24,000 nt of DNA from Candidatus Copromorpha sp. (GTDB lineage Bacteria; Bacillota; Clostridia; Peptostreptococcales; Anaerovoracaceae): contig JAXGMD010000001.1 in the NCBI GenBank assembly GCA_040768865.1, positions 1,225,117-1,249,116 of the forward strand, in the 5' to 3' direction. The translations under genes and the position numbers were made by a program. Every line of letters starts with the position of its first letter. Position 1 is the first letter of the stretch. Shown piece after piece: positions 2,170 through 21,655 of the stretch. The notes beneath the pieces are model-generated. The model was not told the origin of the DNA. It did no database searches and worked only from the letters and a program-made list of their open reading frames with translations.

Positions 2170-2172
2170 CAA

Positions 2173-2886: not shown

Positions 2887-2894
2887 TCGTATCC

Positions 2895-2935
2895 ACAATC
2901 CTGACGGTCATTTTCACCGCCGGGATTGTTTTTAT
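2895..2935 (+). terminator. Intrinsic terminator after ssrA
   Basis: ACAATCC (2895-2901) pairs with GGATTGT (2923-2929), with partly paired inner arms. A TTTTT run follows. Confidence 0.7.
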
Positions 2936-3444: not shown

Positions 3445-3518
3445 AACAACAATCAAGACAAAGAAACAGATGTGATAACAACGAAATCAATGATAAAACA
3501 AGAATAGAAGGAGGAGTT

Positions 3519-5807: not shown

Positions 5808-6087
5808 AGAGAGCTCATTATCACCACATGAGTAGAAAAAAATCGGCTCTATGCCAAATTTTGGGATGGAGCCATAATTCATGTTGCTCCAGTTTCAATC
5901 AAAGGTAACAGGAGGCATTGTAGTACTAATGAAGTCCATCAAGAACTATCTCATTGGAATCTAATACACCCGAACTCAAAGCGTATGACGGACAGCATAT
6001 GCTTATTTGTTGTGGTGAATTTTTTCCGGATGAGAGAGCAGACTTTGCAGACCTTTAATTGCGTCTAATAAAGTTTTGGTTAACAAG

Positions 6088-6118
6088 CCTCACTCTGGAA
6101 AAGGAGTGGGGTTTTTTA
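6088..6118 (+). terminator. Intrinsic terminator (about 280 nt after the nrdJ stop)
   Basis: CCTCACTC (6088-6095) pairs with GAGTGGGG (6104-6111), including one G.U pair. A TTTTTT run follows. Confidence 0.7.
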
Positions 6119-6269
6119 TTTTGTGGAGGATTATGTTATGAGTACATATACAGGATATACAAGAGCAAGGGCTGAGGCCAATGCGAATTTCCAAGCGTGA
6201 GTGGCTCAGAGAACTGTTTTACGGACAGAAGATATAGTAGAATGTAACAGAAAGAGATGGAGGAAAACA

Positions 6270-7361: not shown

Positions 7362-7399
7362 GTGATAGATAAACAAAAGTGAAGAAATTTAAAGTGAGA

Positions 7400-7458
7400 T
7401 TGAAGTAATTTTGAAGTTTACATTGAAGTGAGATTGAAGTATAATTGAAGCACTTCAA
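7400..7458 (+). promoter_or_regulatory. Promoter embedded in a phased TTGAAG hexamer array
   Basis: The -35 is TTTACA (7417-7422), followed by a 17-bp spacer and a -10 TATAAT (7440-7445). TTGAAG occurs at 7400, 7411, 7423, 7434 and 7445. The inverted copy CTTCAA at 7453-7458 forms the palindrome TTGAAGcaCTTCAA. AGTGAGATTGAAGTA is a perfect 15-bp direct repeat at 7393 and 7427. Confidence 0.55.
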
Positions 7459-7478
7459 AGTAAAACAGGAGGGTGTTT

Positions 7479-8921
7479 ATGTATCTGGAAGAAATAATTG
7501 GTGATGTACAATTGGAGAGCAGCAAGTTTGAGAGTAAAGAAATTTTGAATCGTGATAATGTTGTAGGATGGCTTAAAACAGTTGCGGGATTTGCCAATGC
7601 ATCGGGTGGTGAATTATATTTGGGCGTTAAGGATAAGACAAATAAATTGGTTGGCTTTGATAGACGAGATGCTGACAATGAACGCAATTACTTCAATAAT
7701 CAAGTAAATGAACATCTGACTCCAAGACCTCAAATGGATATTTCGTTTTTACCATACAAAGTTAGGGATAATGAGCGGTTCATCATAAAAATCAGTATTC
7801 CGGAATCAGTGGTTAAACCAGTAATTCTGAAATACAAAAGTATACCTTCTATATATATGAGAAGAGATGGCTTTACAAATGGAGCTACATATGAAGAAAT
7901 TGTTGAAATGAGTATTAAGAGCAAGAATACACAATATGATATTTTGGTTTCTGATGCTAAATATGAAAAAAGTAAGATATCCAAACTCCATTCATTTTAT
8001 AAAGAACATAATTATGGTGAAGAATTAAAGGAGAAATTTTTGCGTTCTATAGGCTTTGTAAACGAAGATGGATATTTACTGAATGGTGCTGTCTTGTTCC
8101 TGGACGATTACGATGGAAAGAAAACTGAAGTACAATGTTCTGTTTTTTCTGGCTTTAATAAAGGGAGTGAAAGAATAGTAACAGTTAATCGTTTTAATGG
8201 GAATATTATCGAAACAATTGAGTACATCATGGGATTTGTGAACCAGAGAATGAATCGTTCAATGATTAAAAAAATGGATAAAAGAATAAACATCGATGCA
8301 TATCCACAGCGTGCTCTATTTGAAGGTGTGATAAATGCGGTTGCACATAGAGATTATTATTTAGATGGAACCCAGATTCAGGTTGATATGTATAAGGACA
8401 GACTCGAAATTTCTTCGCCCGGTGGATTTTATAGAGGTGAAAGATTCGGTAAAACATATGATTTGTCAGGAGTTATTTCGAAACGAAGAAATGAATTAAT
8501 TTCAAATGTGCTTGTAGGGTGTAATGTTATGGAAGCCGCAGGTACCGGTTTTGATAAGATAATGGAGGAGTACGCAGAAGCAGATCAACCTCACAAACCG
8601 TATATTTATTCTTCATCGGATCATTTCACTTTGGTACTTCCGGATTTGACATACGAAAATGGCGTTAAAGATGAGCGATTAGCAGCCATTTCTTTTGTGC
8701 CTGCTTCAAATAGTACAGAACATGATGAGAAAGTTTTGGCGTTTTGCTATCATCAAGCACACAAAGCGTCAGAAATAGCACAATTCCTCGGTCTTAAAGA
8801 TTCTACATATTTTAGAAACAAAGTGTTAAATAATCTTGTGGAACAGGAGTATTTGTTGAAAAGTAAAGGATTAAGAGCATGGTATTATAGGACAAACTCC
8901 GATTCAGTACAACAACAATGA
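7479..8921 (+). CDS. AlbA_2 (Schlafen-like) + HATPase_c_4 + C-terminal wHTH protein, the family usually annotated as a putative ATP-dependent DNA-binding regulator
   Basis: The N-terminal ESSKFESKE...VVGWLKTVAGFANASGGELYLGVKD is the AlbA_2 signature. RALFEGVINAVAHRDYYLDGTQIQVDMYKDRLEISSPGG is the HATPase_c_4 signature. The C-terminal ASEIAQFLGLKDSTYFRNKVLNNLVEQEYL is wHTH-like. ATG 7479 lies 6 nt after the AGGAGGG RBS. The track start at 7473 is a GTG inside that RBS. Confidence 0.85.
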   Translation: MYLEEIIGDVQLESSKFESKEILNRDNVVGWLKTVAGFANASGGELYLGVKDKTNKLVGFDRRDADNERNYFNNQVNEHLTPRPQMDISFLPYKVRDNERFIIKISIPESVVKPVILKYKSIPSIYMRRDGFTNGATYEEIVEMSIKSKNTQYDILVSDAKYEKSKISKLHSFYKEHNYGEELKEKFLRSIGFVNEDGYLLNGAVLFLDDYDGKKTEVQCSVFSGFNKGSERIVTVNRFNGNIIETIEYIMGFVNQRMNRSMIKKMDKRINIDAYPQRALFEGVINAVAHRDYYLDGTQIQVDMYKDRLEISSPGGFYRGERFGKTYDLSGVISKRRNELISNVLVGCNVMEAAGTGFDKIMEEYAEADQPHKPYIYSSSDHFTLVLPDLTYENGVKDERLAAISFVPASNSTEHDEKVLAFCYHQAHKASEIAQFLGLKDSTYFRNKVLNNLVEQEYLLKSKGLRAWYYRTNSDSVQQQ

Positions 8922-8974
8922 GGAGTTGGTCAGTGGCAGTTGTCTGCAAACTTGTTTAAATGGAAAGAAACTCA

Positions 8975-9013
8975 TTGACCTTTGTCCCTAATAATGTATA
9001 ATAATAGGGACAA
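8975..9013 (+). promoter_or_regulatory. abiE promoter with an operator-like inverted repeat
   Basis: The -35 is TTGACC (8975-8980), followed by a 16-bp spacer and a -10 TATAAT (8997-9002). A perfect 9-bp inverted repeat, TTGTCCCTA (8982-8990) and TAGGGACAA (9005-9013), brackets the -10. Confidence 0.6.
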
Positions 9014-9026
9014 GGGAGATGGTGAA

Positions 9027-9638
9027 ATGAACACAAACATAAGCGAAATGATGAATAAAATAGAAGCAAGTCCTGAAGGCACTGCGTTTATTATTTCTGA
9101 TTTTACAGATTCAATAGGATATGAAACTGCCAAAAAGACATTGGCACGCCTAGAAAAAAAGGGCGTGTTGAGGCGAGTGCTGCGAGGCGTATACGACAAG
9201 CCGGCATATAGTAACCTTCTCCAAGAAGTGGCGGCACCAGATCCGGAACAGATAGCAGAGGCTCTAGCCAGAAGCTATAATTGGACGATAGCACCCAGTG
9301 GAAATACAGCACTTAACTTGTTAGGGCTATCTACGCAAGTTCCTGCCAACTGGGTATTTATAAGCAGTGGTCCATATAAGAAATATGAATTCGGAAGTGT
9401 AAAACTTGAGTTTTTGCACCGCGCTGATAAAACCATAGCCGGGATGTCGCAAACTACAGCAATGGTCATTGAAGCCCTCAAGGCCATAGGACGTGAAAAT
9501 GTTACTGAAGAGCATATAAAGAGGCTCAAGCGGCGTTTGCCAGCAGAGGCAAAAGAGTTGTTGATTGAGGAAGGCAGACACACTTCCCATTGGATTTATG
9601 ACCGGTTCAAAGAGATTTGCAAAGAGGAGGAAAAGTAA
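9027..9638 (+). CDS. abiEi: AbiEi-like (DUF6088-type) type IV TA antitoxin / transcriptional repressor
   Basis: TLARLEKKGVLRRVLRGVYDKPAYS is the wHTH region. APSGNTALNLLGLSTQVPA matches the AbiEi/DUF6088 family as I recall it. The start was moved to ATG 9027, which sits behind a GGGAGA RBS. Confidence 0.8.
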   Translation: MNTNISEMMNKIEASPEGTAFIISDFTDSIGYETAKKTLARLEKKGVLRRVLRGVYDKPAYSNLLQEVAAPDPEQIAEALARSYNWTIAPSGNTALNLLGLSTQVPANWVFISSGPYKKYEFGSVKLEFLHRADKTIAGMSQTTAMVIEALKAIGRENVTEEHIKRLKRRLPAEAKELLIEEGRHTSHWIYDRFKEICKEEEK

Positions 9639-10458
9639 ATGTATGATATTGCAAAGCTGCCTTCTGAAGAACGAATGATATTGTTTCGAAATACGGCTGA
9701 AAAAGCTGGCCGTAACGAGGCAGTCATAGAAAAGGACTTTTGGGTTTGCATAACACTGGATTATTTATTTCATAGATGAATCACGAAAGAGGCTTTTTGA
9801 TTTTCTTCAGAATAAGTTTATGCCGACTTTCAAAGACGGTATGAGCGAAATTATAGGCACGAATGCCGATGTTTTCGTTGCTGAAAATGATGATGGCACT
9901 ATATGCTTTAACTATCCCGGCAGCTTTCATAGCGATGCACTGCAACGTGTTATTCGTTTAGAGATTGGAGCACTGGCAGCATGGACTCCAACTCAAATTG
10001 CCACTGTTAAACCGGATGTCGCGACCTACTATCCAAATATTTTTTCACAGGCAGATACAAATATTCTTACGACTACGGCTGAAAGAACCTTTTGGGAAAA
10101 AGCAACGATACTGCATCAGGAAGCATTCAGGCCTGAAAAATCTACCGTACCGATGAGGTATTCCAGGCACTATTATGACGTGCACTGCATGGTCAAAACC
10201 ACAGTTAAGGAACAAGCTATGGCTCAGCCTAAATTATTGGAGGCAGTTGCGAAATTTAAGCAAAAATTCTATCCCCGCAAATGGGCGAGGTATGAATTGG
10301 CAAGAGTTGGTTCATTAAAACTGTTGCCTGCGGAGCATAGCGTAGAATTATTGCGTGAGGACTATGCAAAAATGCGTTCAATGATTTATGGAAAATATCC
10401 CTCATTTGATGAAATACTTGCCGGTATTACTGTATTGGAAAAAGAAATAAACAAGTAA
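9639..10458 (+). pseudogene. abiEii: AbiEii/AbiGii-family nucleotidyltransferase toxin, disrupted (N-terminal 46-aa stub plus an out-of-frame C-terminal part)
   Basis: ATG 9639 directly abuts the abiEi stop. It encodes MYDIAKLPSEERMILFRNTAEKAGRNEAVIEKDFWVCITLDYLFHR, a typical AbiEii N-terminus, and then hits TGA at 9777-9779. The family resumes in the +1 frame, open from 9754, as ...LFDFLQNKFMPTFKDG...IRLEIGA...ERTFWEKATILH... up to 10458. The GGTxLxK and SEDID-type catalytic motifs that normally lie between these two parts are absent in both frames. Confidence 0.8.
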
Positions 10459-10501
10459 CAAACAAGTAAAATAATAAGTGAAAGTCTGGTCAGAGATGGT
10501 A

Positions 10502-10586
10502 GCAGCAGGACAATATTGCAGGTAACTTTCTTTTATGAAAAGATTGTTAAATAGTGCCTGCAAATTGTGGACAACTGCTGCTTTTT
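10502..10586 (+). terminator. Long imperfect hairpin plus T-run after the abiE remnant
   Basis: GCAGCAG (10502-10508) pairs with CTGCTGC (10575-10581). TTGCAGG (10516-10522) pairs with CCTGCAA (10557-10563). TTTTT follows. Confidence 0.45.
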
Positions 10587-10589
10587 ATA

Positions 10590-10618
10590 TTGCAAAAAAG
10601 CTCGCTTGAATATATAAT
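10590..10618 (+). promoter_or_regulatory. hipBA promoter candidate
   Basis: The -35 is TTGCAA (10590-10595), followed by a 17-bp spacer and a -10 TATAAT (10613-10618). Confidence 0.5.
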
Positions 10619-10677
10619 ACAGTTAATATATTAGCTATAATTTGCTAAAATATCACATAAAGGATAATATATTAATC

Positions 10678-10965
10678 ATGAACACGAATGTTTTGAGTTT
10701 CAAAACCCCATATGAAGTCTCTATGGAAATATCAGAGAAGGCAAAACTCAGGCGGAAGCAAATGAAGCTTACGCAGGCGCAGCTTGCCGAAAAGTCGGGG
10801 GTGAGTTTGGGATCTTTGAAGCGTTTTGAAAGAACCGGCAAAGTCTCTCTTTCGTCTTTATTGAATATAGCTATGGCACTGGGATGCCTGAAAGATTTTG
10901 AAGGTGTATTCAAGAAACCGGAATACACAACCATAGAGGAAATTCTAAATGATAAAAACAGATAG
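10678..10965 (+). CDS. hipB: XRE-family HTH antitoxin (HipB-like)
   Basis: LTQAQLAEKSGVSLGSLKRFERTGKVSLSSLLNIAMAL is an HTH_3 motif. The 3' end overlaps hipA by 17 nt. The start is uncertain: ATG 10678 is preferred over TTG 10642. Confidence 0.75.
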   Translation: MNTNVLSFKTPYEVSMEISEKAKLRRKQMKLTQAQLAEKSGVSLGSLKRFERTGKVSLSSLLNIAMALGCLKDFEGVFKKPEYTTIEEILNDKNR

Positions 10966-12067
10966 AATAGATGTTTTTATAAATGAAAGGCATGTGGGTA
11001 CTCTGGCAGAAACACGGCACAGAGCTGCTTTTCAATATAGTGACGAATGGCTTGAAAACGAATTCAGCATAAGTCCTTTTTCTCTGCCTCTTGAAAGAAG
11101 GCTTTTCATTCCGGAATACAACCCGTTTGAAGGTGTATTTGGAGTCTTTGCGGATACACTTCCTGACGGATGGGGCAGATTGATTGTGGACAGATACATC
11201 AGACAGAAGTTTGGGGTGAATGCCTCCGACATCGGAGGATTTCAAAGGCTGACACTTGTGTCAGATTCCGGACTGGGTGCGCTTAACTATAAGCCTGCAA
11301 TGGATTTTAGCGGTGAAGATTTTGCAGGAAATTACGACGAGTTGGCCGAGGAGTGCGGCAGGCTGCTTAGAGAAGAAAACATCGATAATCTGGATGAACT
11401 CTTTCAGCTTGGCGGATCTACGGGCGGCGCAAGACCGAAAATTCATACAAAAGTAAATGGAGAGGAATGGATTATTAAATTCCCGGCAACCTATGACAGT
11501 CAAAGCATCGGACTGCAGGAATATGAATACAGCCTTTGCGCAAAGGCGTGCGGTATAGAAATGAGTGAAACTCGACTTTTTCCATCAGAAATATGCGCCG
11601 GATATTTCGGTACGAAGCGTTTCGACAGAAAGAGTGATGGCAGAAGAGTTCATATGATTTCCGCAAGCGGGCTTCTGGAGACTTCGCACAGGTACCCGAA
11701 TCTGGATTATAATGAGCTCATGAAGCTGACGCTGCTCCTTACCCGTGACATGCAGGAAGTGAAGAAAATGTACGACCGCATGTGCTTCAATGTATATGCG
11801 CATAATAGAGATGACCATTCCAAGAATTTCTCTTTTCTGTACGACGAGGAAGAAATGCGATGGATAGTGTCTCCTGCCTACGACCTGACATACAGCAGCT
11901 CACAGGGTGGAGAGCACGCAACCACAATTAGCGGGGAAGGGAAAAAACCGGGAAGAGAACACATTCTCCAGGTTGCCAAGATAGCGGGGATAGATGCATC
12001 GTATGCAAAATCAAGGGCGAGAGAGATTGAAGAAGTTGTGAGGGTAATGTTGGGGGAGTACTTGTGA
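10949..12067 (+). CDS. hipA: HipA-family type II toxin Ser/Thr kinase (372 aa)
   Basis: The N-terminal coupling domain is IDVFINERHVGTLA...LPDGWG. The GGSTGGARPK loop, the catalytic HNRDDHSKNFSF and SPAYDLTYS are present. A GAGGA RBS lies 8 nt upstream. Confidence 0.9.
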   Translation: MIKTDRIDVFINERHVGTLAETRHRAAFQYSDEWLENEFSISPFSLPLERRLFIPEYNPFEGVFGVFADTLPDGWGRLIVDRYIRQKFGVNASDIGGFQRLTLVSDSGLGALNYKPAMDFSGEDFAGNYDELAEECGRLLREENIDNLDELFQLGGSTGGARPKIHTKVNGEEWIIKFPATYDSQSIGLQEYEYSLCAKACGIEMSETRLFPSEICAGYFGTKRFDRKSDGRRVHMISASGLLETSHRYPNLDYNELMKLTLLLTRDMQEVKKMYDRMCFNVYAHNRDDHSKNFSFLYDEEEMRWIVSPAYDLTYSSSQGGEHATTISGEGKKPGREHILQVAKIAGIDASYAKSRAREIEEVVRVMLGEYL

Positions 12068-12099
12068 AGATTTGACTCAATTACTTGTCTTAAGATGAT

Positions 12100-12255
12100 G
12101 TGAAAAATGTTATAATACCTATCAAAGCAATATATCAAGATGGAGAACTGGAAGATAGTTCAACTGCAAACTATAAGCTGACAGTTCAAAAAGAGGGAAC
12201 AATAGAGATTAACAGGCAAATTGTCTACTATTCTTTAGATAGCAGATATAACTAA
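12100..12255 (+). pseudogene. Possible RhuM-family (virulence protein RhuM-like) gene fragment
   Basis: A 51-codon open frame reads ...IYQDGELEDSSTANYKLTVQKEGTIEINRQIVYYSLDSRYN*. It resembles, from memory, the central RhuM motif (..I[FY].EGEL.......K........G......V.YYNLD.IISVGYRV) but stops before the SVGYRV block. There is no RBS or proper start. Confidence 0.35.
12108..12116 (+). promoter_or_regulatory. Extended -10 promoter candidate for the methyltransferase operon
   Basis: TGtTATAAT lies at 12108-12116. There is no good -35, and an extended -10 can compensate for that. It is the only strong promoter-like element between the hipA stop and 12273. Confidence 0.4.
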
Positions 12256-12272
12256 AAAACGGAAGGACCATC

Positions 12273-12434
12273 ATGGATAATATAATTGATATTTTGAACG
12301 ACGACAAAGACTTGCAAGCATTAAAAAAGCAGTATGAAGAAAAATACATGAAAAATGCACCACCCTTTAATACTGATGAATATAACGGTATTGATGATTA
12401 CAAAGAACAATTAAAGAAATTAGTGGAAGGCTAA
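12273..12434 (+). CDS. Small acidic hypothetical protein (53 aa), below the track's length cutoff
   Basis: A GGAAGGA RBS (12261-12267) lies 5 nt before the ATG. The protein is MDNIIDILNDDKDLQALKKQYEEKYMKNAPPFNTDEYNGIDDYKEQLKKLVEG*. Its 3' end carries the GGAAGG RBS for the next gene, and its stop is 5 nt before TTG 12440. Confidence 0.45.
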   Translation: MDNIIDILNDDKDLQALKKQYEEKYMKNAPPFNTDEYNGIDDYKEQLKKLVEG

Positions 12435-12439
12435 GCAGT

Positions 12440-14410
12440 TTGATTATAAACATTCAAGACGATATTTTAAAACTTAATAGTATAAAAATTCTTGATAAGC
12501 TTTTGGTTGATAAAACAACGCGAAAAAACATCATGTGGGCTACGGATGCTTATGACGATGCAGGGGAATTGTATGAAAGAAATAAAGAGATAACAATTCA
12601 AGCTGTTACAGGACATAATGCCGGAGTTATCAAAACACGAGCAAGAAAGGCGTTAGAGAGTCAGGAAAAGAGAACGCGACAACATGCGGAGATTTTCACG
12701 CCACTATGGCTTTGCAATTTGATGAATAATCAAACTGATGAAGAATGGTTCGGGAGAAAAGAAGTTTTCAACAAGGATGGAGAGCCAACGGAAAAAGTAA
12801 AATTCCCGGAAGGGAAAACCTGGCAAAAATACATTAAATCAAGGCGGATGGAAATAACTTGTGGAGAGGCTCCTTTTCTCGTTAGCAGATATGATGTTGA
12901 AACAGGCGAAATGATACCTGTTAGTAAACGAATAGGAATACTCGATCGCAAATTGCGGACTGTTAGCGAAAACACCGAAACTGAAGCTGAGTGGATGAAA
13001 TGGACTATAAGAGCTTTTCAAGCGACATATGGCTATGAGTTTCAGGGAGACAATGTCCTTATTGCACGGGTAAATATGCTTATGACATTTGAGGAACACT
13101 TAGAGGATAGATGGGGTAGAAAGCCATCCTACAGGGAATACGAAAAGTTTGCAAATATCATTGCTTGGAACATCTGGCAAATGGATGGTCTAACCGGGAC
13201 AGTTCCGTATTGCAAGGCTAAAGAGGAAGATTTACAGACAAATATGTTCGATAAGATAGGCATGAACTTTGAACCAGAGGAAGAGGATGTACAGCCGCCG
13301 TGCAGGATATATGACTGGTTAGGCAAAAACAGAAGTATAGAATTTATATCGCTTAGGAACAAGAGGGAAAAAATGAAATTTGATTTTATTATCGGGAATC
13401 CACCGTATCAAGAAGAGCAGGAAGGGGACAATAAAACATTTGCTCCGCCTATTTATCACAAGTTTTTGGAAGAAGCATATAAACTATCTGATTGTGTTGA
13501 AATGGTTCATCCTGCCAGATTTTTATTCAATGCGGGAAGTACTCCAAAGGAATGGAACCGCAAGATACTATCAGATCCACATTTAAAGGTGCTGTTTTAT
13601 GAACAAGATAGCAGTAAAGTTTTCCTAAATACTGATATTAAAGGTGGGGTAGCGATAACATATCGGGATAAAAAGCATAAGAATAAACCAATAGGAACTT
13701 TTACAGCGTTTGAAGAATTAAACTCACTATTAAATAAGGTTTATGGAAGTGACGGTTTTGACAGCTTTAGTAAGATTGTGTTTACACGCACAGCATATCG
13801 TTTGACAGATATCATGCATAACGAACATCCTGAAGCATTAAGCCAATTAAGTAAGGGACATGCGTATGATATGTCTACAAATATATTCGAATTGCTGCCT
13901 CAAATTTTTTATGATGAGAAGCCAGATGATGAGACTTATAGTTATATTAAAATTTTGGGACGGGAAAACAATCAGAGAACTTACAAATGGATTCGAAGAG
14001 ATTATGTAAATGATGTTACCAATTTAGAAAAATGGAAAATTATTTTACCAAAATCTAATGGTTCCGGTGCACTTGGGGAGGTATTAACAACACCCCTAAT
14101 CGGGGAACCCCTAATCGGGTCAACAGAATCCTTTATAAGCATTGGTGATTTTGAAACAGAAGAAGAGGTAGTTGCATGTTTGAAATATGTTAAATCGAAG
14201 TTTGCGAGATGCATGTTAGGCATACTTAAGGTTACACAGGACAATCCACCGGAAAAGTGGAAATATATCCCAATGCAGGACTTCACAGAGACTTCTGATA
14301 TTGACTGGTCAAAGTCAATATCAGAAGTTGACGAGCAAATATATAAGAAATATGGGCTAAGCAATCAAGAAATAGAGTTTATTGAATCGCATGTCAAGGA
14401 GATGGAATAA
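12440..14410 (+). CDS. Eco57I-like gamma-class N6-adenine DNA methyltransferase with a C-terminal target-recognition-like domain (656 aa)
   Basis: Motif X-like AEIFTPLWLCNLMNN comes first. Motif I-like RMEITCGEAPFL follows, then motif IV FDFIIGNPPYQ (NPPY at 13397-13408). The C-terminal ...KSKFARCMLGILKVTQ...IDEQIYKKYGLSNQEIEFIESHVKEM is typical of Eco57I/TaqI-type TRD tails. The TTG start is 9 nt after GGAAGG. The alternative ATG (MWATDAY) would remove 31 aa. Confidence 0.88.
   Translation: MIINIQDDILKLNSIKILDKLLVDKTTRKNIMWATDAYDDAGELYERNKEITIQAVTGHNAGVIKTRARKALESQEKRTRQHAEIFTPLWLCNLMNNQTDEEWFGRKEVFNKDGEPTEKVKFPEGKTWQKYIKSRRMEITCGEAPFLVSRYDVETGEMIPVSKRIGILDRKLRTVSENTETEAEWMKWTIRAFQATYGYEFQGDNVLIARVNMLMTFEEHLEDRWGRKPSYREYEKFANIIAWNIWQMDGLTGTVPYCKAKEEDLQTNMFDKIGMNFEPEEEDVQPPCRIYDWLGKNRSIEFISLRNKREKMKFDFIIGNPPYQEEQEGDNKTFAPPIYHKFLEEAYKLSDCVEMVHPARFLFNAGSTPKEWNRKILSDPHLKVLFYEQDSSKVFLNTDIKGGVAITYRDKKHKNKPIGTFTAFEELNSLLNKVYGSDGFDSFSKIVFTRTAYRLTDIMHNEHPEALSQLSKGHAYDMSTNIFELLPQIFYDEKPDDETYSYIKILGRENNQRTYKWIRRDYVNDVTNLEKWKIILPKSNGSGALGEVLTTPLIGEPLIGSTESFISIGDFETEEEVVACLKYVKSKFARCMLGILKVTQDNPPEKWKYIPMQDFTETSDIDWSKSISEVDEQIYKKYGLSNQEIEFIESHVKEME
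14093..14122 (+). repeat. In-frame 15-bp tandem duplication inside the methyltransferase TRD
   Basis: The sequence reads CCCCTAATCGGGgaa CCCCTAATCGGGtca, encoding PLIGE-PLIGS. Confidence 0.85.
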
Positions 14411-17400
14411 TGGCTACACCGAAGATTAAGTCTTTTACCTCTGTGGTTCCTATGATTTATGCCTATAATACTCCCGGGGTTTTGTACCATGAAGGATGGA
14501 CGAAAATAGGGTATACAGAAAAACAATCGGTTGCAGATCGCATCAAGCAACAGACGCACACTGCAGGAATAAAGCCGGTGATTGCATGGCAGGATAACGC
14601 AATATATAAAGACGGATCCGGCGAGTATTTCACTGATTATGAATTTCACGGCTATCTGGAAATTGAGAAAGAGGTGGAACGTGAAAAAGGAACTGAATGG
14701 TTCAAAATTGATGGTGCTAATTCAAAACAATATTTTGATTGCTTTGCAAGTCGTAGCTTTGATGAGATCCCGGAAGAAGAAAGATATTCATACACATTGC
14801 GCGATGAGCAGGCTGAAGCCGTTGCTATGACAAAAGAGTACTTTGAAAATGGTGGCGAGGAGTTTCTTTGGAATGCTAAACCGCGTTTTGGAAAGACTTT
14901 AACATCATATGATTTGATTAGAGAGATGGGATTTAAAAAGGTACTTATCGTTACTAACAGACCCAGCATCTCGAATTCATGGGCGGATGATTTTCACAAA
15001 TTCATAGGATGGAGAGGCGAACTTGCATTTGTATCTGAAACTGACGCGCTGAAAGACAAAAGAGGTGTTTTGAGTCGTGAAGAATATGTAAATCGTACCG
15101 TAGCCCTAGATTCCGAAAAAGCTCCGGGTATGGTTGCATTTGAATCTCTGCAAGGGCTTAAGGGATCCGTATATTTCGGGGGACAAATTGATAAGCTGGA
15201 ATGGATTCATGGAATCAATGATGGATTTGATCTTTTGATTATTGATGAGGCGCAAGAAGGCGTTGACACTATGCGTACAGAACGCGCCTTTAAATCCATA
15301 AAGAGGAAGCATACGCTTTATCTTTCAGGAACCCCGTTTAAAGCCCTTGCCAGTGAGCAGTTTTCTAAAGAACAGATTTTTAACTGGTCCTATGCTGATG
15401 AGCAAGAGACAAAAGCAACATGGAAGAACGAAGATTACAATCCATATGAAATACTTCCGCGACTGGAAATGTATACATATCAACTTTCTGCAATGATTAG
15501 GGAGGAGATAGAGAAAGGGATAGACCTTTCAGAAGATGGTAGTACAGACTATGCATTTGATTTGAACGAGTTCTTTTCAACTAATGAGAGCGGTAAGTTT
15601 ATATATGAGGAAGATGTCAAGAAATTTCTGCATGCACTTTGCTCTCAAGAAAAATATCCGTATTCTACACCGGAATTGCGGCAAGAGTTGTCACATACTC
15701 TTTGGTTATTAAATCGTGTAGCCAGTGCAAAAGCATTAGCCAAATTGTTAAAAGATGATCCGGTCTTCAGGGAATATGAGGTTGTTCTTGCAGCCGGTGA
15801 TGGTCGTCTAGATGATAATGAAGCGACAGAAGCATCATTTGATAAAGTTAAAGAGGCCATAGCAAATAATGAAAAGACAATTACTCTCAGCGTCGGCCAG
15901 CTGACAGTTGGAGTTACCATACCTGAATGGAGTGGTGTTTTGATGCTATGCAATCTGAAGAGCCCATCATCGTACATGCAGGCAGCTTTTCGTGCACAAA
16001 ACCCGTGTATTGTTACTAAAGATGGAAAAAGATATCGCAAGGAAACCGCATATGTATTTGATTTCGACCCGGCGAGAACACTTATCATCTTCGATGAATT
16101 TGCAAACAATCTGTCAAAAGACACAGTGGATGGTCGAGGAACAAAAGGTGATAGAGAGCAAAACATTCGTAGATTATTGAATTTCTTCCCTGTTCTTGGA
16201 GAAGATGATGAGGGAACAATGATTGAACTGGATGCAGCTCAGGTTCTTTCAATTCCAAGACGAATTAAGAGCCAAGAGGTTGTGCGACGTGGATTTATGT
16301 CAAACTTCCTATTCCAGAATATCAGCAATGTATTTGGAGCTCCTGCAGTTGTTCGTGAAATTGTGGAGAAGCTTACACCTGCACATGAAGAAACGAAAAG
16401 GACAGATAAAGAAAAGCTGAAGGACCTAGAAGGTGTTTCTGTAAATGAAGATGGGGAAGTTGAGATTCCGGTGGAAATAGTAATTGGTAAGACCCGAGAG
16501 CTTTTTGGCGAAAAAATATATGAGACTCTCGAATCTGACTTGAATGGAACGCTGAATGGTATTAACAAGAATTCCGAATTTGAGGGGATTGAGAGCGGTA
16601 TAGAGGAAGTCATAGAGACGGTAAAGAATAGCCTTAAGGGAAGTGTTATAAAACCGGCATCCGATGAGTACGATCTCAAATCACGTACTCAGCAGAGGAT
16701 TGAAAAACAGCTAGACAGAGAGATTGAAACTACCTTTATGAAAATAAAGGATGACTATAAGCAACAGGCATCCATAGCAAAGGCAGAGCTCGAACGAAAA
16801 CGGAAAGAGGCGGAATCAGAGCAGGATGTTAAACAAGCCGATGCAGAGTATGAGATGTGTATGGATGATGCCATGAAAGGGCTTATGGAGGCTGCAAAAG
16901 AAACAATAAAGAAGACCATTGATGAAAAACCAAAAGAAGTTATTGAGAAAATAGAAAAGATTCGTGCGGAAGCGGAGAAGAAAACAATAGAGGATACCAT
17001 ACGAGATCACCTTAGAGGTTTTTCAAGAACTATTCCTAGCTTCATCATGGCTTATGGAGATGGAAATATCACCTTAGCGAACTTTGATGAATATACAGAG
17101 GATGATGTTTTTCAAGCGGTTACCGGCATTTCTGAAGAAGATTTCAGATTTTTAAGAGACGGTGGCAATTATGAGAATCCGGAAACAGGTGAGACAGAGT
17201 ACTTTGATGGAAAACTATTTGATGAAGTTGTGTTTAACGATTCAGTTGAAGAGTTCTGGAACAAGAAAATCTCATTAGCTGACTATTTTGACGAAACGCA
17301 TGAAGAAGATATTTTTGATTATATTCCGCCACAGAAAACTAACCAAATATTTACGCCAAGATGGGTAGTTGCTACAATGGTAGATCAATTGGAAGAGAAC

Positions 17401-17733
17401 AATCCCGGCTGTTTTGATGATCCAACAAATACCTTTGCCGACCTGTATATGAAGTCCGGTCTTTATATTACAGAGATTGTAAAGCGGCTATATAGAAGCG
17501 ATGAAATTAAGAAGGTCTATCCTGATAACGAGGAAAGGATTCGTCATATTCTTAGGAATCAGGTGTATGGCATGGCTCCAACCAGAATCATTTATCTGAT
17601 TGCGACTAATTATATTCTGGGATTTGATGAAAGCTTGAAAGATGAGGTAATGAACTTTATTCAATGTGATGCTGCTGAAGCATCGAAAAATGGGAAGCTG
17701 GGGGAAATGGTGGATAAGTTTTTTGATATTTAG
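14410..17733 (+). CDS. Multidomain protein (1107 aa): N-terminal T5orf172/GIY-YIG-like domain, SF2 (ResIII/DEAD-like) helicase, Glu/Lys coiled-coil, and a C-terminal degenerate methyltransferase-like region
   Basis: The ATG overlaps the upstream stop (TAATG, 14408-14412), and an AAGGAG RBS lies 9 nt upstream. Residues 15-100 (IYAYNTPG...TKIGYTEKQSVADRIKQQ...YEFHGYL...GTEWFKI) fit the T5orf172 pattern. Walker A is PRFGKT (GKT at 14890-14898). The DEAQ box is LLIIDEAQEG (15244-15255). Motif III is LYLSGTPF and motif VI-like is MQAAFRAQNP. Residues ~655-875 are E/K-rich. Residues 980 onward read IFTPRWVVATMVDQL...FADLYMKSGLYITEI...VYGMAPTRIIYLIATNYIL, which resembles methyltransferase motifs X and I, but no NPPY follows. 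Confidence 0.88.
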   Translation: MATPKIKSFTSVVPMIYAYNTPGVLYHEGWTKIGYTEKQSVADRIKQQTHTAGIKPVIAWQDNAIYKDGSGEYFTDYEFHGYLEIEKEVEREKGTEWFKIDGANSKQYFDCFASRSFDEIPEEERYSYTLRDEQAEAVAMTKEYFENGGEEFLWNAKPRFGKTLTSYDLIREMGFKKVLIVTNRPSISNSWADDFHKFIGWRGELAFVSETDALKDKRGVLSREEYVNRTVALDSEKAPGMVAFESLQGLKGSVYFGGQIDKLEWIHGINDGFDLLIIDEAQEGVDTMRTERAFKSIKRKHTLYLSGTPFKALASEQFSKEQIFNWSYADEQETKATWKNEDYNPYEILPRLEMYTYQLSAMIREEIEKGIDLSEDGSTDYAFDLNEFFSTNESGKFIYEEDVKKFLHALCSQEKYPYSTPELRQELSHTLWLLNRVASAKALAKLLKDDPVFREYEVVLAAGDGRLDDNEATEASFDKVKEAIANNEKTITLSVGQLTVGVTIPEWSGVLMLCNLKSPSSYMQAAFRAQNPCIVTKDGKRYRKETAYVFDFDPARTLIIFDEFANNLSKDTVDGRGTKGDREQNIRRLLNFFPVLGEDDEGTMIELDAAQVLSIPRRIKSQEVVRRGFMSNFLFQNISNVFGAPAVVREIVEKLTPAHEETKRTDKEKLKDLEGVSVNEDGEVEIPVEIVIGKTRELFGEKIYETLESDLNGTLNGINKNSEFEGIESGIEEVIETVKNSLKGSVIKPASDEYDLKSRTQQRIEKQLDREIETTFMKIKDDYKQQASIAKAELERKRKEAESEQDVKQADAEYEMCMDDAMKGLMEAAKETIKKTIDEKPKEVIEKIEKIRAEAEKKTIEDTIRDHLRGFSRTIPSFIMAYGDGNITLANFDEYTEDDVFQAVTGISEEDFRFLRDGGNYENPETGETEYFDGKLFDEVVFNDSVEEFWNKKISLADYFDETHEEDIFDYIPPQKTNQIFTPRWVVATMVDQLEENNPGCFDDPTNTFADLYMKSGLYITEIVKRLYRSDEIKKVYPDNEERIRHILRNQVYGMAPTRIIYLIATNYILGFDESLKDEVMNFIQCDAAEASKNGKLGEMVDKFFDI

Positions 17734-17747
17734 GACACTGGAGCAAG

Positions 17748-18770
17748 GTGATAAAAATAATGAAAAATGAAAGTACATCAACTAATCATAGACAAGACAA
17801 CTATGTAGATAATCGCATCTGCAACAAAAGCAGTAAAGATGCATTGTTAGGTTTGGCCGTTGCCGATGCATTAGGAGTTCCTGTGGAATTTTCAATAAGA
17901 AAAAGGCTGCAGCAAAATCCGGTTGTTGGAATGCGAGGTTTTGGATCTCATGATGTACCGGCAGGAACATGGTCAGATGACACATCCATGACTATTGCCA
18001 CCATGCAGGCAGTTGCGGATAAAGGTCAAATAGACTATGACGAAATAATGAACAATTTCAGTAAATGGCTCAATGAGGGTGAGTTTACCACCGATGGCAA
18101 AGTATTTGATGTTGGTGGTACATGCCTTCGTGCAGTCATGAAATGGTGCCGAGGTGGTTGCGAGCCAATAGATGCAGGAATGAAAGGTGAACGCAATAAC
18201 GGCAACGGATCTTTGATGCGGTTTTTGCCGGTTCCATTCTATTGTTACTCTAAAGGAATACAAGGCAATGATCTAGTAAAAATCTGCAATGAGATCTCAT
18301 CTCTTACCCACAGTCATGAAATAAGTCGTTTGGGATGCTATATTTACACAATTTTTATGATGGAACTTTTGAGAGGTCATAATCTAAGAGAGGCATATGA
18401 GAATATGCAGAAGGCAGACTATAGCGCTTATTCTGCAGAGAGCATTGGAATATATTCCAGGATATTGAATAATGATATTTCTGTTTTGGCAGAAGAGTCA
18501 ATTGAGTCGGATGGATATGTTGTTTACACATTGGAAGCAGCGCTCTGGTGCCTCCTGAACGGAAAAGATTACAAAAGCACAGCCTTAATGGCAGTAAATC
18601 TTGGTCGAGATACAGATACAGTAGCAGCTGTTGCCGGCTCCATGGCGGGCATTGTCTATGGAAAAGAAAGTATACCGACTGAATGGCTGGAAGTTTTGCT
18701 TAGGAGAGAGTACTTGGAAAATCTTTCAGAAAGATTTGATTGTGCATTAATTCGTACAATTATAGATTAG
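17748..18770 (+). CDS. ADP-ribosylglycohydrolase family protein (DraG/ARH-like)
   Basis: Motifs present are LLGLAVADALGVPVEF, GTWSDDTSMT, NGNGSLMR, THSH, DGYVVYTLEAALWCL and GRDTDTVAAVAGSMAGIVYG (the metal-binding Asp/Thr clusters). The gene starts 14 nt after the helicase stop. The start is ambiguous between GTG 17748 and ATG 17760. Confidence 0.88.
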   Translation: MIKIMKNESTSTNHRQDNYVDNRICNKSSKDALLGLAVADALGVPVEFSIRKRLQQNPVVGMRGFGSHDVPAGTWSDDTSMTIATMQAVADKGQIDYDEIMNNFSKWLNEGEFTTDGKVFDVGGTCLRAVMKWCRGGCEPIDAGMKGERNNGNGSLMRFLPVPFYCYSKGIQGNDLVKICNEISSLTHSHEISRLGCYIYTIFMMELLRGHNLREAYENMQKADYSAYSAESIGIYSRILNNDISVLAEESIESDGYVVYTLEAALWCLLNGKDYKSTALMAVNLGRDTDTVAAVAGSMAGIVYGKESIPTEWLEVLLRREYLENLSERFDCALIRTIID

Positions 18771-18828
18771 ATTATGATATAATCAATCTGCCCCGGATTG
18801 GTGGATCCGAGGCAGATGGTGCTGGTTG

Positions 18829-18918
18829 CTATTTGTGGTAACGACTCAGCCACTTGCAGATATAGTTGGCAATTATACCTGCTACAGTCGAAACTAAAAG
18901 CGCACATAGAATATTCAT
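18829..18918 (-). CDS. Type I toxin candidate: a 29-aa hydrophobic peptide (Fst/Ldr/PepA1-like)
   Basis: It is not in the ORF track because it is too short. The minus strand reads GGAAAGGAGGTGctatATG and then MNILCALLVSTVAGIIANYICKWLSRYHK*, a single TM helix with a basic tail. It resembles S. aureus PepA1 (...SGCAIAFFSYWLSRRNTK) as I recall it. A perfect consensus promoter lies upstream. Confidence 0.65.
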   Translation of the reverse strand: MNILCALLVSTVAGIIANYICKWLSRYHK

Positions 18919-18964
18919 ATAGCACCTCCTTTCCGTTGCCGGTATGGAGATTAGCAACAAACAT

Positions 18965-18993
18965 ATTATAGTGTAAATGGAAATATTTGTCAA
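18965..18993 (-). promoter_or_regulatory. Consensus sigma-A promoter for the toxin mRNA
   Basis: On the minus strand, TTGACA (18993-18988) is followed by a 17-bp spacer and TATAAT (18970-18965). Both hexamers are perfect. The ~40-nt 5' UTR contains the hairpin GTTGC...GCAAC, and its loop ATCTCC could sequester the SD. Confidence 0.7.
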
Positions 18994-19010
18994 TTATTAC
19001 ATAATCACTA

Positions 19011-19038
19011 TTGACTAAATTTATTATGGTGTTATAAT
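19011..19038 (+). promoter_or_regulatory. Promoter for the divergent small RNA
   Basis: The -35 is TTGACT (19011-19016), followed by a 16-bp spacer and an extended -10 TGtTATAAT (19030-19038). It sits back-to-back with the toxin promoter. Confidence 0.6.
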
Positions 19039-19044
19039 GAATAT

Positions 19045-19116
19045 AGGCAAAGCGTACATAGAAACATATGGCACACGAAAACTTCGGAATGGTGGTTCCG
19101 GGGTTTTCTTTTTTGT
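19045..19116 (+). ncRNA. Candidate type I antitoxin sRNA (~65-70 nt), bounded by a promoter and a terminator
   Basis: It starts ~7 nt after the -10 and ends at the intrinsic terminator at 19082-19116. Positions 19049-19062 (AAAGCGTACATAGA) are complementary to toxin codons 3-7, forming a 14-bp duplex with one U.G pair. CATAT at 19065-19069 is complementary to the AUG region. Confidence 0.5.
19082..19116 (+). terminator. Intrinsic terminator
   Basis: CTTCGGAA (19082-19089) pairs with TTCCGGGG (19096-19103), including two G.U pairs. The T-rich tract TTTTCTTTTTTGTTTCTTTT follows. Confidence 0.65.
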
Positions 19117-19148
19117 TTCTTTTATCAACGAACACTTCCGGATTATGG

Positions 19149-19178
19149 TTGAAAAAAGAAAATGGATATAAGTATAAT
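19149..19178 (+). promoter_or_regulatory. fic promoter candidate
   Basis: The -35 is TTGAAA (19149-19154), followed by an 18-bp spacer and a -10 TATAAT (19173-19178). It lies downstream of the terminator at 19082-19116. Confidence 0.4.
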
Positions 19179-19220
19179 ATGTGTAGAGGAAACCAGCAAA
19201 AAGATGCGGAGGGGATAGTC

Positions 19221-20000
19221 GTGAGCAGAATAGAGGATGTGCTCAGGGAATACAAACAACTCGGGATAGATCAGCAGTTGGATTACGATAAATTCTACCT
19301 GTACTCCATTATCACGCATTCAACAGCAATTGAGGGTTCAACGGTAACGGAAATAGAAAATCAGCTTCTTTTTGATGAAGGAATCAGTTCGGGTAAGCCG
19401 ATGCCGGAACAGCTTATGAATCTCGACTTGAAGAAAGCATATGAAAGAGCCTTTGCAGTTGCGGATAACCATGAGGAGATTACAATCGAACTGCTTTGCA
19501 GTTTGTCCGGTATTCTGATGAAGAACACCGGGTCTTTATATAACACAATCGCGGGAACCTTCAGCAGTGCAGATGGGGATTTAAGGCTTTTGAATGTCAG
19601 TGCCGGCCACGGAGGCAAAAGCTATATGGCATGGCAAAAAGTGCCGGGAAGGCTGGAAGAATTCTGTTCCTGGTTGAAAGAGGAGCGGGGAAATCTTAAA
19701 CCCGGAGATATTGAAAGTGCTTACAAGTTAAGTTTTGAAGCACATTACCGTTTGGTAGGTATACATCCTTGGGCGGGTGGAAATGGCAGGATGGCGCGTC
19801 TTGTAATGAATATCATTCAGCGTGAGGCCGGTGTGATTCTATCAATTGTAAAAAAAGAGAGCAGAGCGGAATACATAAAAAGCCTGGCTGATTCACAGGC
19901 TTCGGATAATAACACACCATTTATGAACTTTATGATGGAAAATCATATCCGCAACATAAACGACCAGATACAGGAATATATAGAATCAATCAGAAAATGA
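19221..20000 (+). CDS. Fic/DOC-family protein with an N-terminal inhibitory-helix motif (class II-like)
   Basis: The Fic core motif HPWAGGNGRMAR lies at 19764-19799. The N-terminal STAIEG at 19320-19337 matches the [ST]xxxE[GN] inhibitory motif. The start was moved to GTG 19221, 6 nt after the GGAGGGG RBS. The track start at 19068 lies inside the sRNA/terminator region and has no RBS. Confidence 0.85.
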   Translation: MSRIEDVLREYKQLGIDQQLDYDKFYLYSIITHSTAIEGSTVTEIENQLLFDEGISSGKPMPEQLMNLDLKKAYERAFAVADNHEEITIELLCSLSGILMKNTGSLYNTIAGTFSSADGDLRLLNVSAGHGGKSYMAWQKVPGRLEEFCSWLKEERGNLKPGDIESAYKLSFEAHYRLVGIHPWAGGNGRMARLVMNIIQREAGVILSIVKKESRAEYIKSLADSQASDNNTPFMNFMMENHIRNINDQIQEYIESIRK

Positions 20001-20039
20001 CACTTTAAAATTCAGGCGGGTTTTATTTAACAAAGAGGC

Positions 20040-21655
20040 ATTAGTGTGAAAGAAAATAAAAACAAGCCGTAAGATGGCAATAAAAAACAGGCTATCTAAA
20101 GATAACCGAAAAATCTGTGCAATGAATTAAATTGTTTAGGAGACGAGTAATTCCTCTGAGATGATGCCCTCCTTTTTAAGCAGTTTAATTGCCTGCTTGA
20201 TTGCTTTGGATTTTTGCATTTCCTTAAGTTCGACAGGCATATCGATTTTGTACAAATCGCAAGGGTTCCACATCTCGCCGGTAGACAGCATGTTGAAGAC
20301 GGCGGTGAGAATCATCCTTGCAATAGCAATGATAGCTCGTTTTTTTCCACGGCGTTTCATGATGCGTTCGTATTTGAGTTTGTAGTAAGGAGATTTGTCG
20401 GATTTCACGGCTGCATGAGCAACTTGTACCAATGCAGGTTTGAGATAGACTCCGGCACGTGTAGTCCGAACAGACTTTTTCTTACCGGCAGACTCGTTGT
20501 TACCGGGAGTAAGTCCGGCCCAGCAACATAAACGCTTGGAAGAAGAAAACTGAGACATATCAGTACCAATCTCGGAAATAATAGTTATCGCACTGTTTCT
20601 ATTGATTCCCGGAACGGTACAAAGCAGATTGACAGCATTATCATAAGGTTCAGCCAACGAATCAATTATTGAGTCTATATCAGCAATAGCAGAAGTGATA
20701 TAATCCATATGTGCACGGATGATATGCATGCGATATTTTTGGGGATCAGTCATCTGATAACCCTCGATGGACTCAATGACACTTTCAGACTTATTCTTGA
20801 GTGAACGAAGCAGTCTGGAGGATATTTCTTCGTGGTTGATGGAATTGTCGGACTGTTCAAGAAGGTAATCGATTATAGAGGTGGCTGATTTCCCGAAGAT
20901 ATCGGAAACAACCGAATCCAATGCAACATTACAAACGGTAAGAGCATTTTGAAATCGATTCTTCTCGCTGCTTCTGCAGGAAGTTAATTTATACCGATAC
21001 CTCGTAAACTCTCTGAGAATACGGATAGGTTTGCACGGTATATAGCTTCCGGGCACAAGCCCTAGTCTGAACAAGTCTCCAATCCATTTGGAATCCTTTG
21101 TGTCGTCCTTGTTCCCTTTGACAGCCTTTACCCATTTAGGGTTGGCGATGGTTATGTTAATTTCATCTTCCAAAAGGTTGAACACAGGTATCCAGTATTT
21201 ACCGGTGGATTCCATGCAGATATCACGACAGGAATTGTCCAACAGCCATTTTTTGAACTCAAGAATGGAATTGTTGAAGGTGGAGAAGCGCTTCTTCTGA
21301 TAAGAAGGCTGAACTCCGGAAGTAGTTTTGATGATTGTGGCAACGAGAAAAGATTTGTGAACATCGACACCACAACAAATCTGATAAACAACTTTCATAG
21401 GCAAGCTCCTTTCTAATAAAAATAAAGAAGCCATTGACTGTCTCATCACACAATTTAACAAAGGCGTTAAAACAATTCTTAGTGTACGGATTAGTAATAC
21501 CACTTATTTGTGCTTGAAAGATGGGGCTTACACTGATTATTATGCTGTCTTTAACGAGGAAGTTAATACGACTCACCTCTTCGTGCTTTGTAGTATAGCT
21601 TCTAAAAAGTATTTTATACCAAAGTGAAAGAAGGGTAAGTAGCTTTCACAACTAT
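20040..21655 (-). mobile_element. IS110-family insertion sequence (boundaries approximate)
   Basis: It has a single transposase gene, with ~250 nt of non-coding sequence on its 5' side and ~100 nt on its 3' side. IS110-family elements lack classic terminal inverted repeats, so the ends cannot be fixed by eye. Confidence 0.5.
20136..21398 (-). CDS. IS110-family DEDD transposase/recombinase (420 aa)
   Basis: The N-terminal MKVVYQICCGVDVHK and CMESTGKYW are DEDD_Tnp_IS110 motifs. LCTVPGINRNSAITIISEIG...CCWAGLTPGNNESAGK is the Transposase_20 domain. ATG 21398 sits behind a GAAAGGAG RBS. The track start at 21503 adds 35 unsupported residues. Confidence 0.93.
   Translation of the reverse strand: MKVVYQICCGVDVHKSFLVATIIKTTSGVQPSYQKKRFSTFNNSILEFKKWLLDNSCRDICMESTGKYWIPVFNLLEDEINITIANPKWVKAVKGNKDDTKDSKWIGDLFRLGLVPGSYIPCKPIRILREFTRYRYKLTSCRSSEKNRFQNALTVCNVALDSVVSDIFGKSATSIIDYLLEQSDNSINHEEISSRLLRSLKNKSESVIESIEGYQMTDPQKYRMHIIRAHMDYITSAIADIDSIIDSLAEPYDNAVNLLCTVPGINRNSAITIISEIGTDMSQFSSSKRLCCWAGLTPGNNESAGKKKSVRTTRAGVYLKPALVQVAHAAVKSDKSPYYKLKYERIMKRRGKKRAIIAIARMILTAVFNMLSTGEMWNPCDLYKIDMPVELKEMQKSKAIKQAIKLLKKEGIISEELLVS

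Follow-up and report, generated by a model that had tools for sequence, protein, structure and literature searches.

The biology of type I toxin–antitoxin systems of the Fst/par type is already well known. In par, the two promoters are convergent and share a bidirectional terminator, and complementary loops start the RNA–RNA contact (Weaver 2020, PMC7472228). Direct repeats in the DNA, which are read in opposite directions, lie over the toxin initiation region, and the toxin mRNA has a 5' stem-loop that hides the Shine-Dalgarno (SD) sequence as well as a helix that sequesters the 5' end (PMC7472228). Fst and Ldr peptides consist of a transmembrane helix with a [P/D/S/T]xxxG motif, a conserved Trp and a charged tail (PMC7472228; PMC2887945), and Fst-like sequences in Clostridiales were reported earlier by Fozo et al. 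2010 (PMC2887945). An antitoxin RNA that overlaps at the 3' end is stated for all Gram-positive families, including Fst/RNAII (PMC8594479); a divergent layout at the 5' end is listed by T1TAdb for Gram-negative families only. Here, we describe a locus in a 24,000-nucleotide stretch of DNA from Candidatus Copromorpha sp. (the window), in which a minus-strand gene for a 29-residue peptide lies back to back with a plus-strand small RNA (sRNA) gene. Judged from its sequence, this locus is, with a probability of roughly 0.8, a type I toxin–antitoxin module of the par/Fst kind with a relocated antitoxin gene.

The resemblance to par (Fst, RNA I and RNA II of Enterococcus faecalis pAD1) is extensive. 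In both systems the putative or known toxin is a short peptide that has one helix, a Trp and a charged tail, the antitoxin RNA has a 5' part that is complementary to the initiation region of the toxin mRNA and ends in a terminator, and complementary terminator loops, an SD-hiding 5' structure and a 5'–3' helix are found, which in the window are predicted by folding. The arrangement is different. The RNA II-like gene lies upstream, is divergent and has its own terminator, so that back-to-back promoters and two separate hairpins take the place of convergent promoters with a shared bidirectional terminator. The predicted transcripts do not overlap, and the loop complementarity comes from two separate hairpin copies, not from one bidirectional terminator.

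A preliminary description of the locus had likened its layout to tisB/istR and zorO/orzO. This holds for the divergent, non-overlapping geometry, but the nearest relative is a rearranged par/Fst system, because the locus combines repeats of the start region with terminator loops that are complementary, a 5' structure that sequesters the SD, and a 5'–3' helix. TisB/IstR-1, ZorO/OrzO, ShoB/OhsC and DinQ/AgrB, like the window locus, have a divergent, non-overlapping sRNA gene at the 5' end and limited complementarity (PMC8594479; PMC2887945 for Zor/Orz). Their toxins appear unrelated to that of the window, they lack a hairpin-loop pairing partner, and they are listed for Gram-negatives only. Furthermore, sRNAs of the TisB/IstR-1 type pair far upstream in long 5' untranslated regions (UTRs), whereas the window duplex would cover the start codon. 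A Pfam search at E≤1 returned none of the TisB, ZorO, ShoB and DinQ families, the presence of a model for each of these toxins in the library being unconfirmed. In SprA1/SprA1AS of Staphylococcus aureus, the antitoxin pairs with the SD and start region outside the overlap (PMC8594479), as is predicted for the window, but there the antitoxin gene is at the 3' end and its RNA overlaps that of the toxin, whereas the window RNAs have zero overlap. Ldr/Rdl of enterobacteria shares the Trp and charged-tail signature; there, the overlap is in cis, between Rdl and the 5' UTR of ldr, and the hosts belong to a different phylum. The window tail, ..KWLSRYHK, also resembles the tail of PepA1. Overall, the locus appears to be a Gram-positive, Fst-like system with Gram-negative-type geometry and par-type target recognition. 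The searchable literature yielded no description of a type I antitoxin from Firmicutes that is divergent or acts in trans, which does not prove that none exists.

The minus-strand gene is organized as first described, with a perfect consensus promoter followed by an SD, an ATG and a 29-codon open reading frame (ORF) in the expected places (Table 1). The translation is MNILCALLVSTVAGIIANYICKWLSRYHK. Residues 3–21 are hydrophobic and a single helix is predicted, within which S10-T-V-A-G14 fits the helix motif; W23 and the charged tail LSRYHK follow. By sequence, the peptide carries the Fst/Ldr signature: SxxxG within a hydrophobic helix, then the Trp, then basic residues in the tail. The predicted mRNA has a 5' UTR of only ~40 nt. 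A TTG-started upstream extension of the ORF to 54 residues was rejected as its TTG is that of the −35 hexamer; this extended ORF has zero homologues among indexed proteins.

Table 1. Coordinates of the elements of the toxin–antitoxin locus in the window.
Element	Position	Strand	Basis or remark
Toxin promoter: TTGACA (18993-18988), 17-nt spacer, TATAAT (18970-18965)	18965..18993	-	12/12 consensus
SD, AAGGAGGTG	18931-18923	-	Direct sequence reading
Toxin ORF, 29 aa; ATG at 18918, stop 18831-18829	18829..18918	-	Stop codon included
Predicted toxin mRNA, RNA I-like, ~180 nt	18780..18958	-	Start near G18958, inferred from -10 box
5' arm of long-range 5'-3' helix, GUUGCUA	18952..18958	-	Minimum-free-energy fold
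3' arm of 5'-3' helix, UAGCAAC, containing the stop codon	18825..18831	-	Minimum-free-energy fold
Anti-SD element in 5' UTR, UCUCC	18946..18950	-	CUCC predicted to pair with GGAG of SD
Toxin mRNA 3' hairpin, 11-bp stem, loop CCACCA (18799-18804)	18788..18815	-	Fold -18.5 kcal/mol
sRNA promoter: TTGACT, 16-nt spacer, TGtTATAAT	19011..19038	+	11/12 consensus, upstream TG
Predicted antitoxin sRNA, RNA II-like, ~70 nt	19045..19114	+	Start placed from -10 box
sRNA intrinsic terminator: stem 19077-19108 (14 pairs), UGGUGG 19090-19095, then T-run	19077..19116	+	
Direct-repeat copy 1, sRNA target on mRNA (-7 to +22)	18897..18925	-	Start codon and codons 3-8
Direct-repeat copy 2, sRNA recognition region	19046..19074	+	Complementary to toxin initiation region

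The plus-strand promoter that had been proposed for the antitoxin is also present. It was thought to produce an sRNA of ~65 nt with a strong terminator at 19082-19116; the terminator is there, although its stem begins further upstream and is followed by TTTTTTGTTT, and the predicted sRNA is slightly longer, at ~70 nt. The sRNA is predicted to have one and the same layout, a single-stranded recognition region at the 5' end ahead of a terminator, in the window and in four related loci, L020, L032, L100 and L102 (labels of this kind denote retrieved loci).

The recognition region and its target were noticed as a 14-nt repeat, and both copies are confirmed: AAAGCGCACATAGA (18897-18910) and AAAGCGTACATAGA (19049-19062). 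These are the sole two matches across the window at ≤1 mismatch, where 0.01 would be expected by chance and 0/100 shuffles contained two. The pairing is longer than the 14 bp originally proposed, as shown by the extended alignment of GTGCTATATG(AA)TATTCTATGTGCGCTTT with GTGCCATATG(--)TTTCTATGTACGCTTT. The predicted sRNA–mRNA duplex spans mRNA positions −7 to ~+22 with a small bulge, that is, from just past the SD, over the start codon, to codon 8. The duplex calculation that had been suggested as a check gave −34.6 to −37 kcal/mol; shuffled sRNAs had a mean of −14.7 ± 3.1 kcal/mol and 0/1000 were as strong as the real duplex.

Further support for a regulatory pair comes from five independent lineages with the divergent layout: the window; L020/L021/L022; L032; L100; and L102, where L100 and L102 came from a targeted metagenome pattern scan. 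Their peptides form a sub-clade with the pattern ...ST.A...YICKWLSRY[LIH]K, in which L100 has AT instead of ST. In all five, the start-region repeat lies 149–156 nt upstream of the ATG, the sRNA promoter matches the consensus at 11–12 of 12 positions and has the extended −10 TG, and the toxin promoter, whose distance from the ATG is constant, matches at 10–12 of 12. The order of the upstream unit is terminator, repeat, promoter, which is that of a canonical RNA II gene moved before the toxin. A test for a downstream copy of the repeat was negative in the window, L020-22 and L032; L100 and L102 were inspected by eye.

Conservation of the repeat together with the peptide had been named as a test in the preliminary description, and the locus passes it: the repeat is both present and covarying in all five lineages. 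The 5' codons of the toxins differ markedly (ATT CTA TGT GCG CTT in the window versus ATC ATC ATG ACT TTT in L020), and the complement in each sRNA is matched to the 5' coding sequence of its own toxin. Cognate duplexes range from −29.0 to −37.2 kcal/mol, whereas the non-cognate ones range from −9.6 to −20.2 kcal/mol in 20/20 combinations. Of 23 mRNA positions (−7 to +20) that are paired in at least four of the five lineages, 16 show changes on both sides. In addition, L022 and L032 reside in one metagenome-assembled genome (Clostridiales bacterium SIG265) and have different recognition sequences; their cross-pairing is ~−20 kcal/mol versus −31 and −37 kcal/mol for the cognate pairs, and this modelling suggests that they are coexisting orthogonal pairs.

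These data bear on the idea that the plus-strand promoter and terminator are a leader or attenuator of fic, the next gene on that strand, with the repeat being incidental. The terminator does lie on the fic strand, ~110 nt ahead of that gene, and a gene in the same direction follows the sRNA in four of the five lineages. These following genes are unrelated to one another, however, fic has its own promoter (TTGAAA-18-TATAAT, 19149-19178), and the transcript sequence tracks the toxin 5' coding region and not the downstream gene, which together make a leader very improbable. The genes that flank the module vary by lineage and include fic, a yhbY-like gene, a nitroreductase-like gene and a riboswitch-led gene; because they are unlike across lineages, the module is an independent cassette. 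The riboswitch-like match in L100 (4443-4640, minus strand) resembles a glycine riboswitch, with a sub-threshold score of 91.8 bits (gathering score, 110), and sits directly 3' of the sRNA terminator, before a membrane-protein gene.

The relocated antitoxin gene has retained a second kind of complementarity. In the window, the toxin mRNA loop CCACCA is complementary to the sRNA terminator loop UGGUGG. The corresponding loops are UCGCAC and GUGCGA in both L020 and L102, and CCACAAC and GUUGUGG in L100, so that the loops are complementary in 4/4 lineages that have both hairpins. The stems differ, and those of L020 versus L102 are essentially unrelated. In canonical par, the two loops match of necessity, since one terminator is read into both RNAs. 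In the sub-clade, the antitoxin gene does not overlap its target and, therefore, the retained complementarity must be maintained by selection. The sequences of these few lineages fit selection on a loop–loop contact.

It had also been suggested that a second antisense promoter, TGaTATAAT at 18775-18783, faces the toxin 3' end, in which case the antitoxin could be a cis-antisense RNA that overlaps this end. The string TGATATAAT does occur at these positions, and a 3' overlap is the usual Gram-positive layout (PMC8594479). The promoter did not withstand scrutiny: there is no −35 element, the promoter scan made no call on the plus strand, the string falls within the last codons and stop region of ARH, and it is absent from L020, L032, L100 and L102. 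As the downstream copy of the start-region repeat is missing as well, an antitoxin of this origin is extremely improbable, and the divergent sRNA remains the preferred antitoxin. The hairpin described next to this string at 18787-18818 exists, with coordinates of 18788-18815.

The window peptide is, by sequence, a member of a large and mostly unannotated family. The tblastn check proposed earlier, made with the peptide against plasmids, matched unannotated small ORFs from Firmicutes exclusively, which share ..A.YICKWL... These include MFATLINFLLSIVAGVIAYYICKWLDR (Ligilactobacillus salivarius), MSIFSSFLLSVLASVVAYYICKWLDGDK (Waltera) and MSEFLSFILSVLASVVAYYICKWLDKNDW (Mediterraneibacter gnavus), each of which is preceded by a strong SD. 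An alignment-driven scan then yielded 13 family loci on viral contigs. In species-representative genomes, it confirmed at least 247 loci, from Clostridia, Negativicutes and Erysipelotrichia, of which 80 were kept for analysis. From the retrieved loci, 107 small ORFs were extracted, most of 25–38 residues and nearly all with a strong SD. The original proposal, an unannotated peptide of the Fst/PepA1 type with a divergent sRNA against its initiation region, is thus joined by more than 100 retrieved relatives, each with an apparent SD and start codon. The family consensus is ~25–38 residues with ...SVxA[SG]xxAYYICKWLD..., where S10 is ≥90% conserved and position 14 is G or S alternately. Trp is present in 78/78 aligned peptides; although W is part of the search pattern, the plasmid matches that were not selected by pattern also have it. 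The conserved S10, A13 and L24 are free of this constraint, as are the spacing of the SD and the shortness of the ORF. Other searches added little: tblastn with the Waltera peptide returned the self-match alone, probably through the low-complexity filter, no plasmid or phage sequence was matched by the 371-bp locus in blastn, and a Protein Data Bank profile search gave just one chance membrane-protein match.

Outside the sub-clade, nearly all family loci appear from their sequences to have the classic par/Fst layout with a convergent antitoxin RNA and a shared terminator. In ~90 of ~100 loci, the segment that best repeats the start region (−15 to +30) is found 40–130 nt past the stop codon, and these downstream repeats score 25–43 versus a background of 12–20. 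When 12 apparent exceptions were checked with G:U pairs and indels allowed, 11 had a complement 43–98 nt past the stop; the remaining one, L095, has its best match at +296. In convergent family members, the toxin mRNA is matched over its full length by Rfam RF02442 (SpF66_sRNA), which does not match the window, L020, L032 or L100. The scores are 46.9 bits for L005 (561-777) versus a gathering score of 42, 38.6 for L003 (560-777) and 34.1 for L006 (561-773). The Rfam entry is of the gene-type sRNA and does not mention a toxin. Hence the catalogued Streptococcus sRNA SpF66 appears, from these matches, to be a par-type toxin mRNA that encodes a small peptide.

Tandem arrays are found among the family loci, with two or three canonical units in L092 (1782-2605), L084 (2527-2919), L096 (61-452), L087, L037, L033, L036 and L048. 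Degenerate-looking tandem copies occur in L091 and L092, which have extended or truncated ORFs, and in L027, whose second copy has no SD. One staphylococcal match, L004 (pSK1, NC_014369.1 17951-18028), ends in ..ISFVASFIVSVIAGIVANYISDKLNR, lacks an in-frame start codon and is flanked by two IS257 elements; it is probably a truncated Fst-like gene.

The toxin mRNA itself is predicted to be closed. In its minimum-free-energy fold, GUUGCUA (18958-18952) at the 5' end pairs with UAGCAAC (18831-18825), and CUCC in the 5' UTR pairs with GGAG in the SD. The same fold is predicted for L020, L032, L100 and L102, which keep the mRNA 5' end GUUGCUA.UCUCC; AAATAGCAACCAG, the 3' helix-arm region of the toxin gene, is invariant throughout the WLSRYxK sub-clade. 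At the level of the family, an RNAalifold consensus of 31 toxin mRNAs, including that of the window, recovered the 5'–3' helix, an internal hairpin and the terminator. The six pairs of the consensus 5'–3' helix show 1, 9, 2, 2, 11 and 11 changes on both sides, and the aligned sequences of these 31 members indicate covariation of the helix and terminator. The SD and anti-SD vary together as well. CCCC is present in the 5' UTR of 20/33 loci with a GGGG SD versus 6/53 with a GGAG SD (Fisher p=2e-6), and CTCC in 27/53 GGAG-SD loci versus 6/33 GGGG-SD loci (Fisher p=0.003); here, a 4-mer was used in place of a strict 5-mer version, which was too stringent. On these counts, SD type predicts anti-SD type family-wide. 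The predicted pairing agrees with the early proposal that an element in the UTR can mask the SD.

This architecture must be weighed against a reading in which the regulated pair is real and the peptide is non-toxic, that is, a small physiological membrane protein under antisense control with no addiction or killing. The peptide falls below threshold for every curated toxin model, and chromosomal homologues of Fst exist whose functions are unclear (PMC7472228). Against it are the Fst/Ldr signature on the peptide, the full par architecture across the wider family, and the presence of family members in plasmids, viral contigs and tandem arrays. Moreover, layered translational repression by an anti-SD, a 5'–3' helix and an sRNA is typical of toxic products. 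A non-toxic role is, on balance, unlikely, and a putative toxin is the preferred assignment.

Several points weigh against the module as read here. The toxin 3' hairpin of the window has no U-run, making the mRNA 3' end uncertain, unlike L102, which has a proper terminator at this place, and L032 has no clear toxin 3' hairpin at all. The window loops lack the YUNR U-turn, a motif that is also missing in some par homologues (PMC7472228); the L102 loop has UUCG. Gene conversion between the repeat copies could partly cause the covariation, instead of selection for RNA pairing. The YICKW core was imposed by the search pattern, and its invariance is no evidence. Finally, curated models do not recognize the locus. 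Relative to Fst, the peptide has SxxxG instead of PxxxG and gives no match to Pfam Fst_toxin at E≤1; Pfam Ldr_toxin is sub-threshold at 13.6 bits versus a cut-off of 27, NCBIfam gives zero matches, and the window has no match to any antitoxin or toxin-mRNA family in Rfam. Ldr_toxin is the best of these toxin models, and a weak one, with sub-threshold matches in 16/78 family peptides and a best E-value of 0.0021.

How the antitoxin gene came to lie upstream is suggested by the tandem canonical arrays. In L084, L096 and L092, the RNA II repeat of one unit is 155–202 nt upstream of the next toxin ATG. The sub-clade may have derived from such an array junction, with the outer toxin and outer RNA II being lost later; a tandem-array origin would thus explain the homology of the two hairpins. 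No remnant of a second toxin was found beyond the sRNA terminator, where alignment scores are at background. The geometry of the arrays could also mean that the locus is a decaying remnant, in which the upstream RNA II was left by a lost neighbour unit and now regulates nothing. This is quite improbable, as both promoters match at 10–12 of 12 positions in five independent lineages, the ORF is intact and the repeat is cognate-specific in all five, loops are complementary in four of the five, and the second-toxin remnant is absent. We favour instead a functional module, and propose more tentatively, at a little short of even odds, that the sub-clade represents a natural switch of a Gram-positive type I antitoxin from cis-encoded (3'-overlapping) to trans-encoded (5'-divergent), with a tandem-par-array junction as its likely origin.

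The module would work as follows. The consensus promoter would drive a ~180-nt mRNA for the 29-residue, single-helix membrane peptide, and this mRNA would be made translationally closed, with its 5' end on the stop-codon region and UCUCC on the SD. The back-to-back promoter would provide an abundant sRNA of ~70 nt, with a ~30-nt single-stranded 5' region and a terminator hairpin. By analogy with par, from which this order of binding is inferred, the loops would touch first, UGGUGG of the sRNA on CCACCA of the mRNA. A bipartite duplex of ~25 bp at −7 to +22 would then bury the start codon and block ribosome binding, and may trigger degradation too. If the sRNA were lost or became less abundant, as the presumed relative stabilities of the two RNAs would allow, the peptide would be synthesized and would damage the membrane.

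The locus is situated between ARH (17748-18770, plus strand) and fic, in a chromosomal island (1726-21503) downstream of smpB (1726-2169) and the transfer-messenger RNA (tmRNA) gene (2530-2886). A position downstream of tmRNA is a classic mark of an integration site. The island encodes RtcB, Schlafen/AlbA, a DUF6088/AbiEi-like protein, HipA, an Eco57I-like methylase with a ResIII helicase, ARH, Fic and an IS110 transposase and is, by these sequence assignments, rich in toxin–antitoxin and defence-type genes. The module may stabilize the tmRNA-linked island or serve in the response to stress or phage. ARH converges on the toxin gene both in the window and in L102 (10621-11571, minus strand); the two proteins are 27% identical, and coincidence and recurrent association are both possible.

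Downstream of its promoter, fic has a GGAGG SD and a GTG at 19221, which gives a 259-residue protein. Its N-terminal S-TAI-E-G resembles the Fic inhibitory helix motif. A 310-residue fic ORF from ATG 19068 would begin inside the sRNA and run through its terminator. This long start is very probably spurious, as had been stated, since it crosses the conserved elements and fic has the promoter noted above. The same is very probably true of a 162-residue ORF, also dismissed at the outset, which crosses both conserved promoters and the terminator and has no counterpart in the relatives. Plus-strand ORFs at 18798-18971 and 19037-19171 were rejected too, as they cross promoters or terminators and are unconserved.

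Together, these results point to a gap in annotation: an abundant family of putative type I toxins is unannotated in every inspected plasmid record, and its hosts are gut and rumen Clostridia, Negativicutes and Erysipelotrichia, with their plasmids and viral contigs. The L022 and L032 pairs are candidates for orthogonal RNA-controlled kill switches or counter-selection markers for anaerobes. The divergent sub-clade is a natural experiment on par regulation, in which the start-region duplex and the hairpin loops are both retained and covary. If the proposed switch is true, loop complementarity that is kept while the stems drift would be evolutionary evidence for a selected loop–loop contact in par-type systems.

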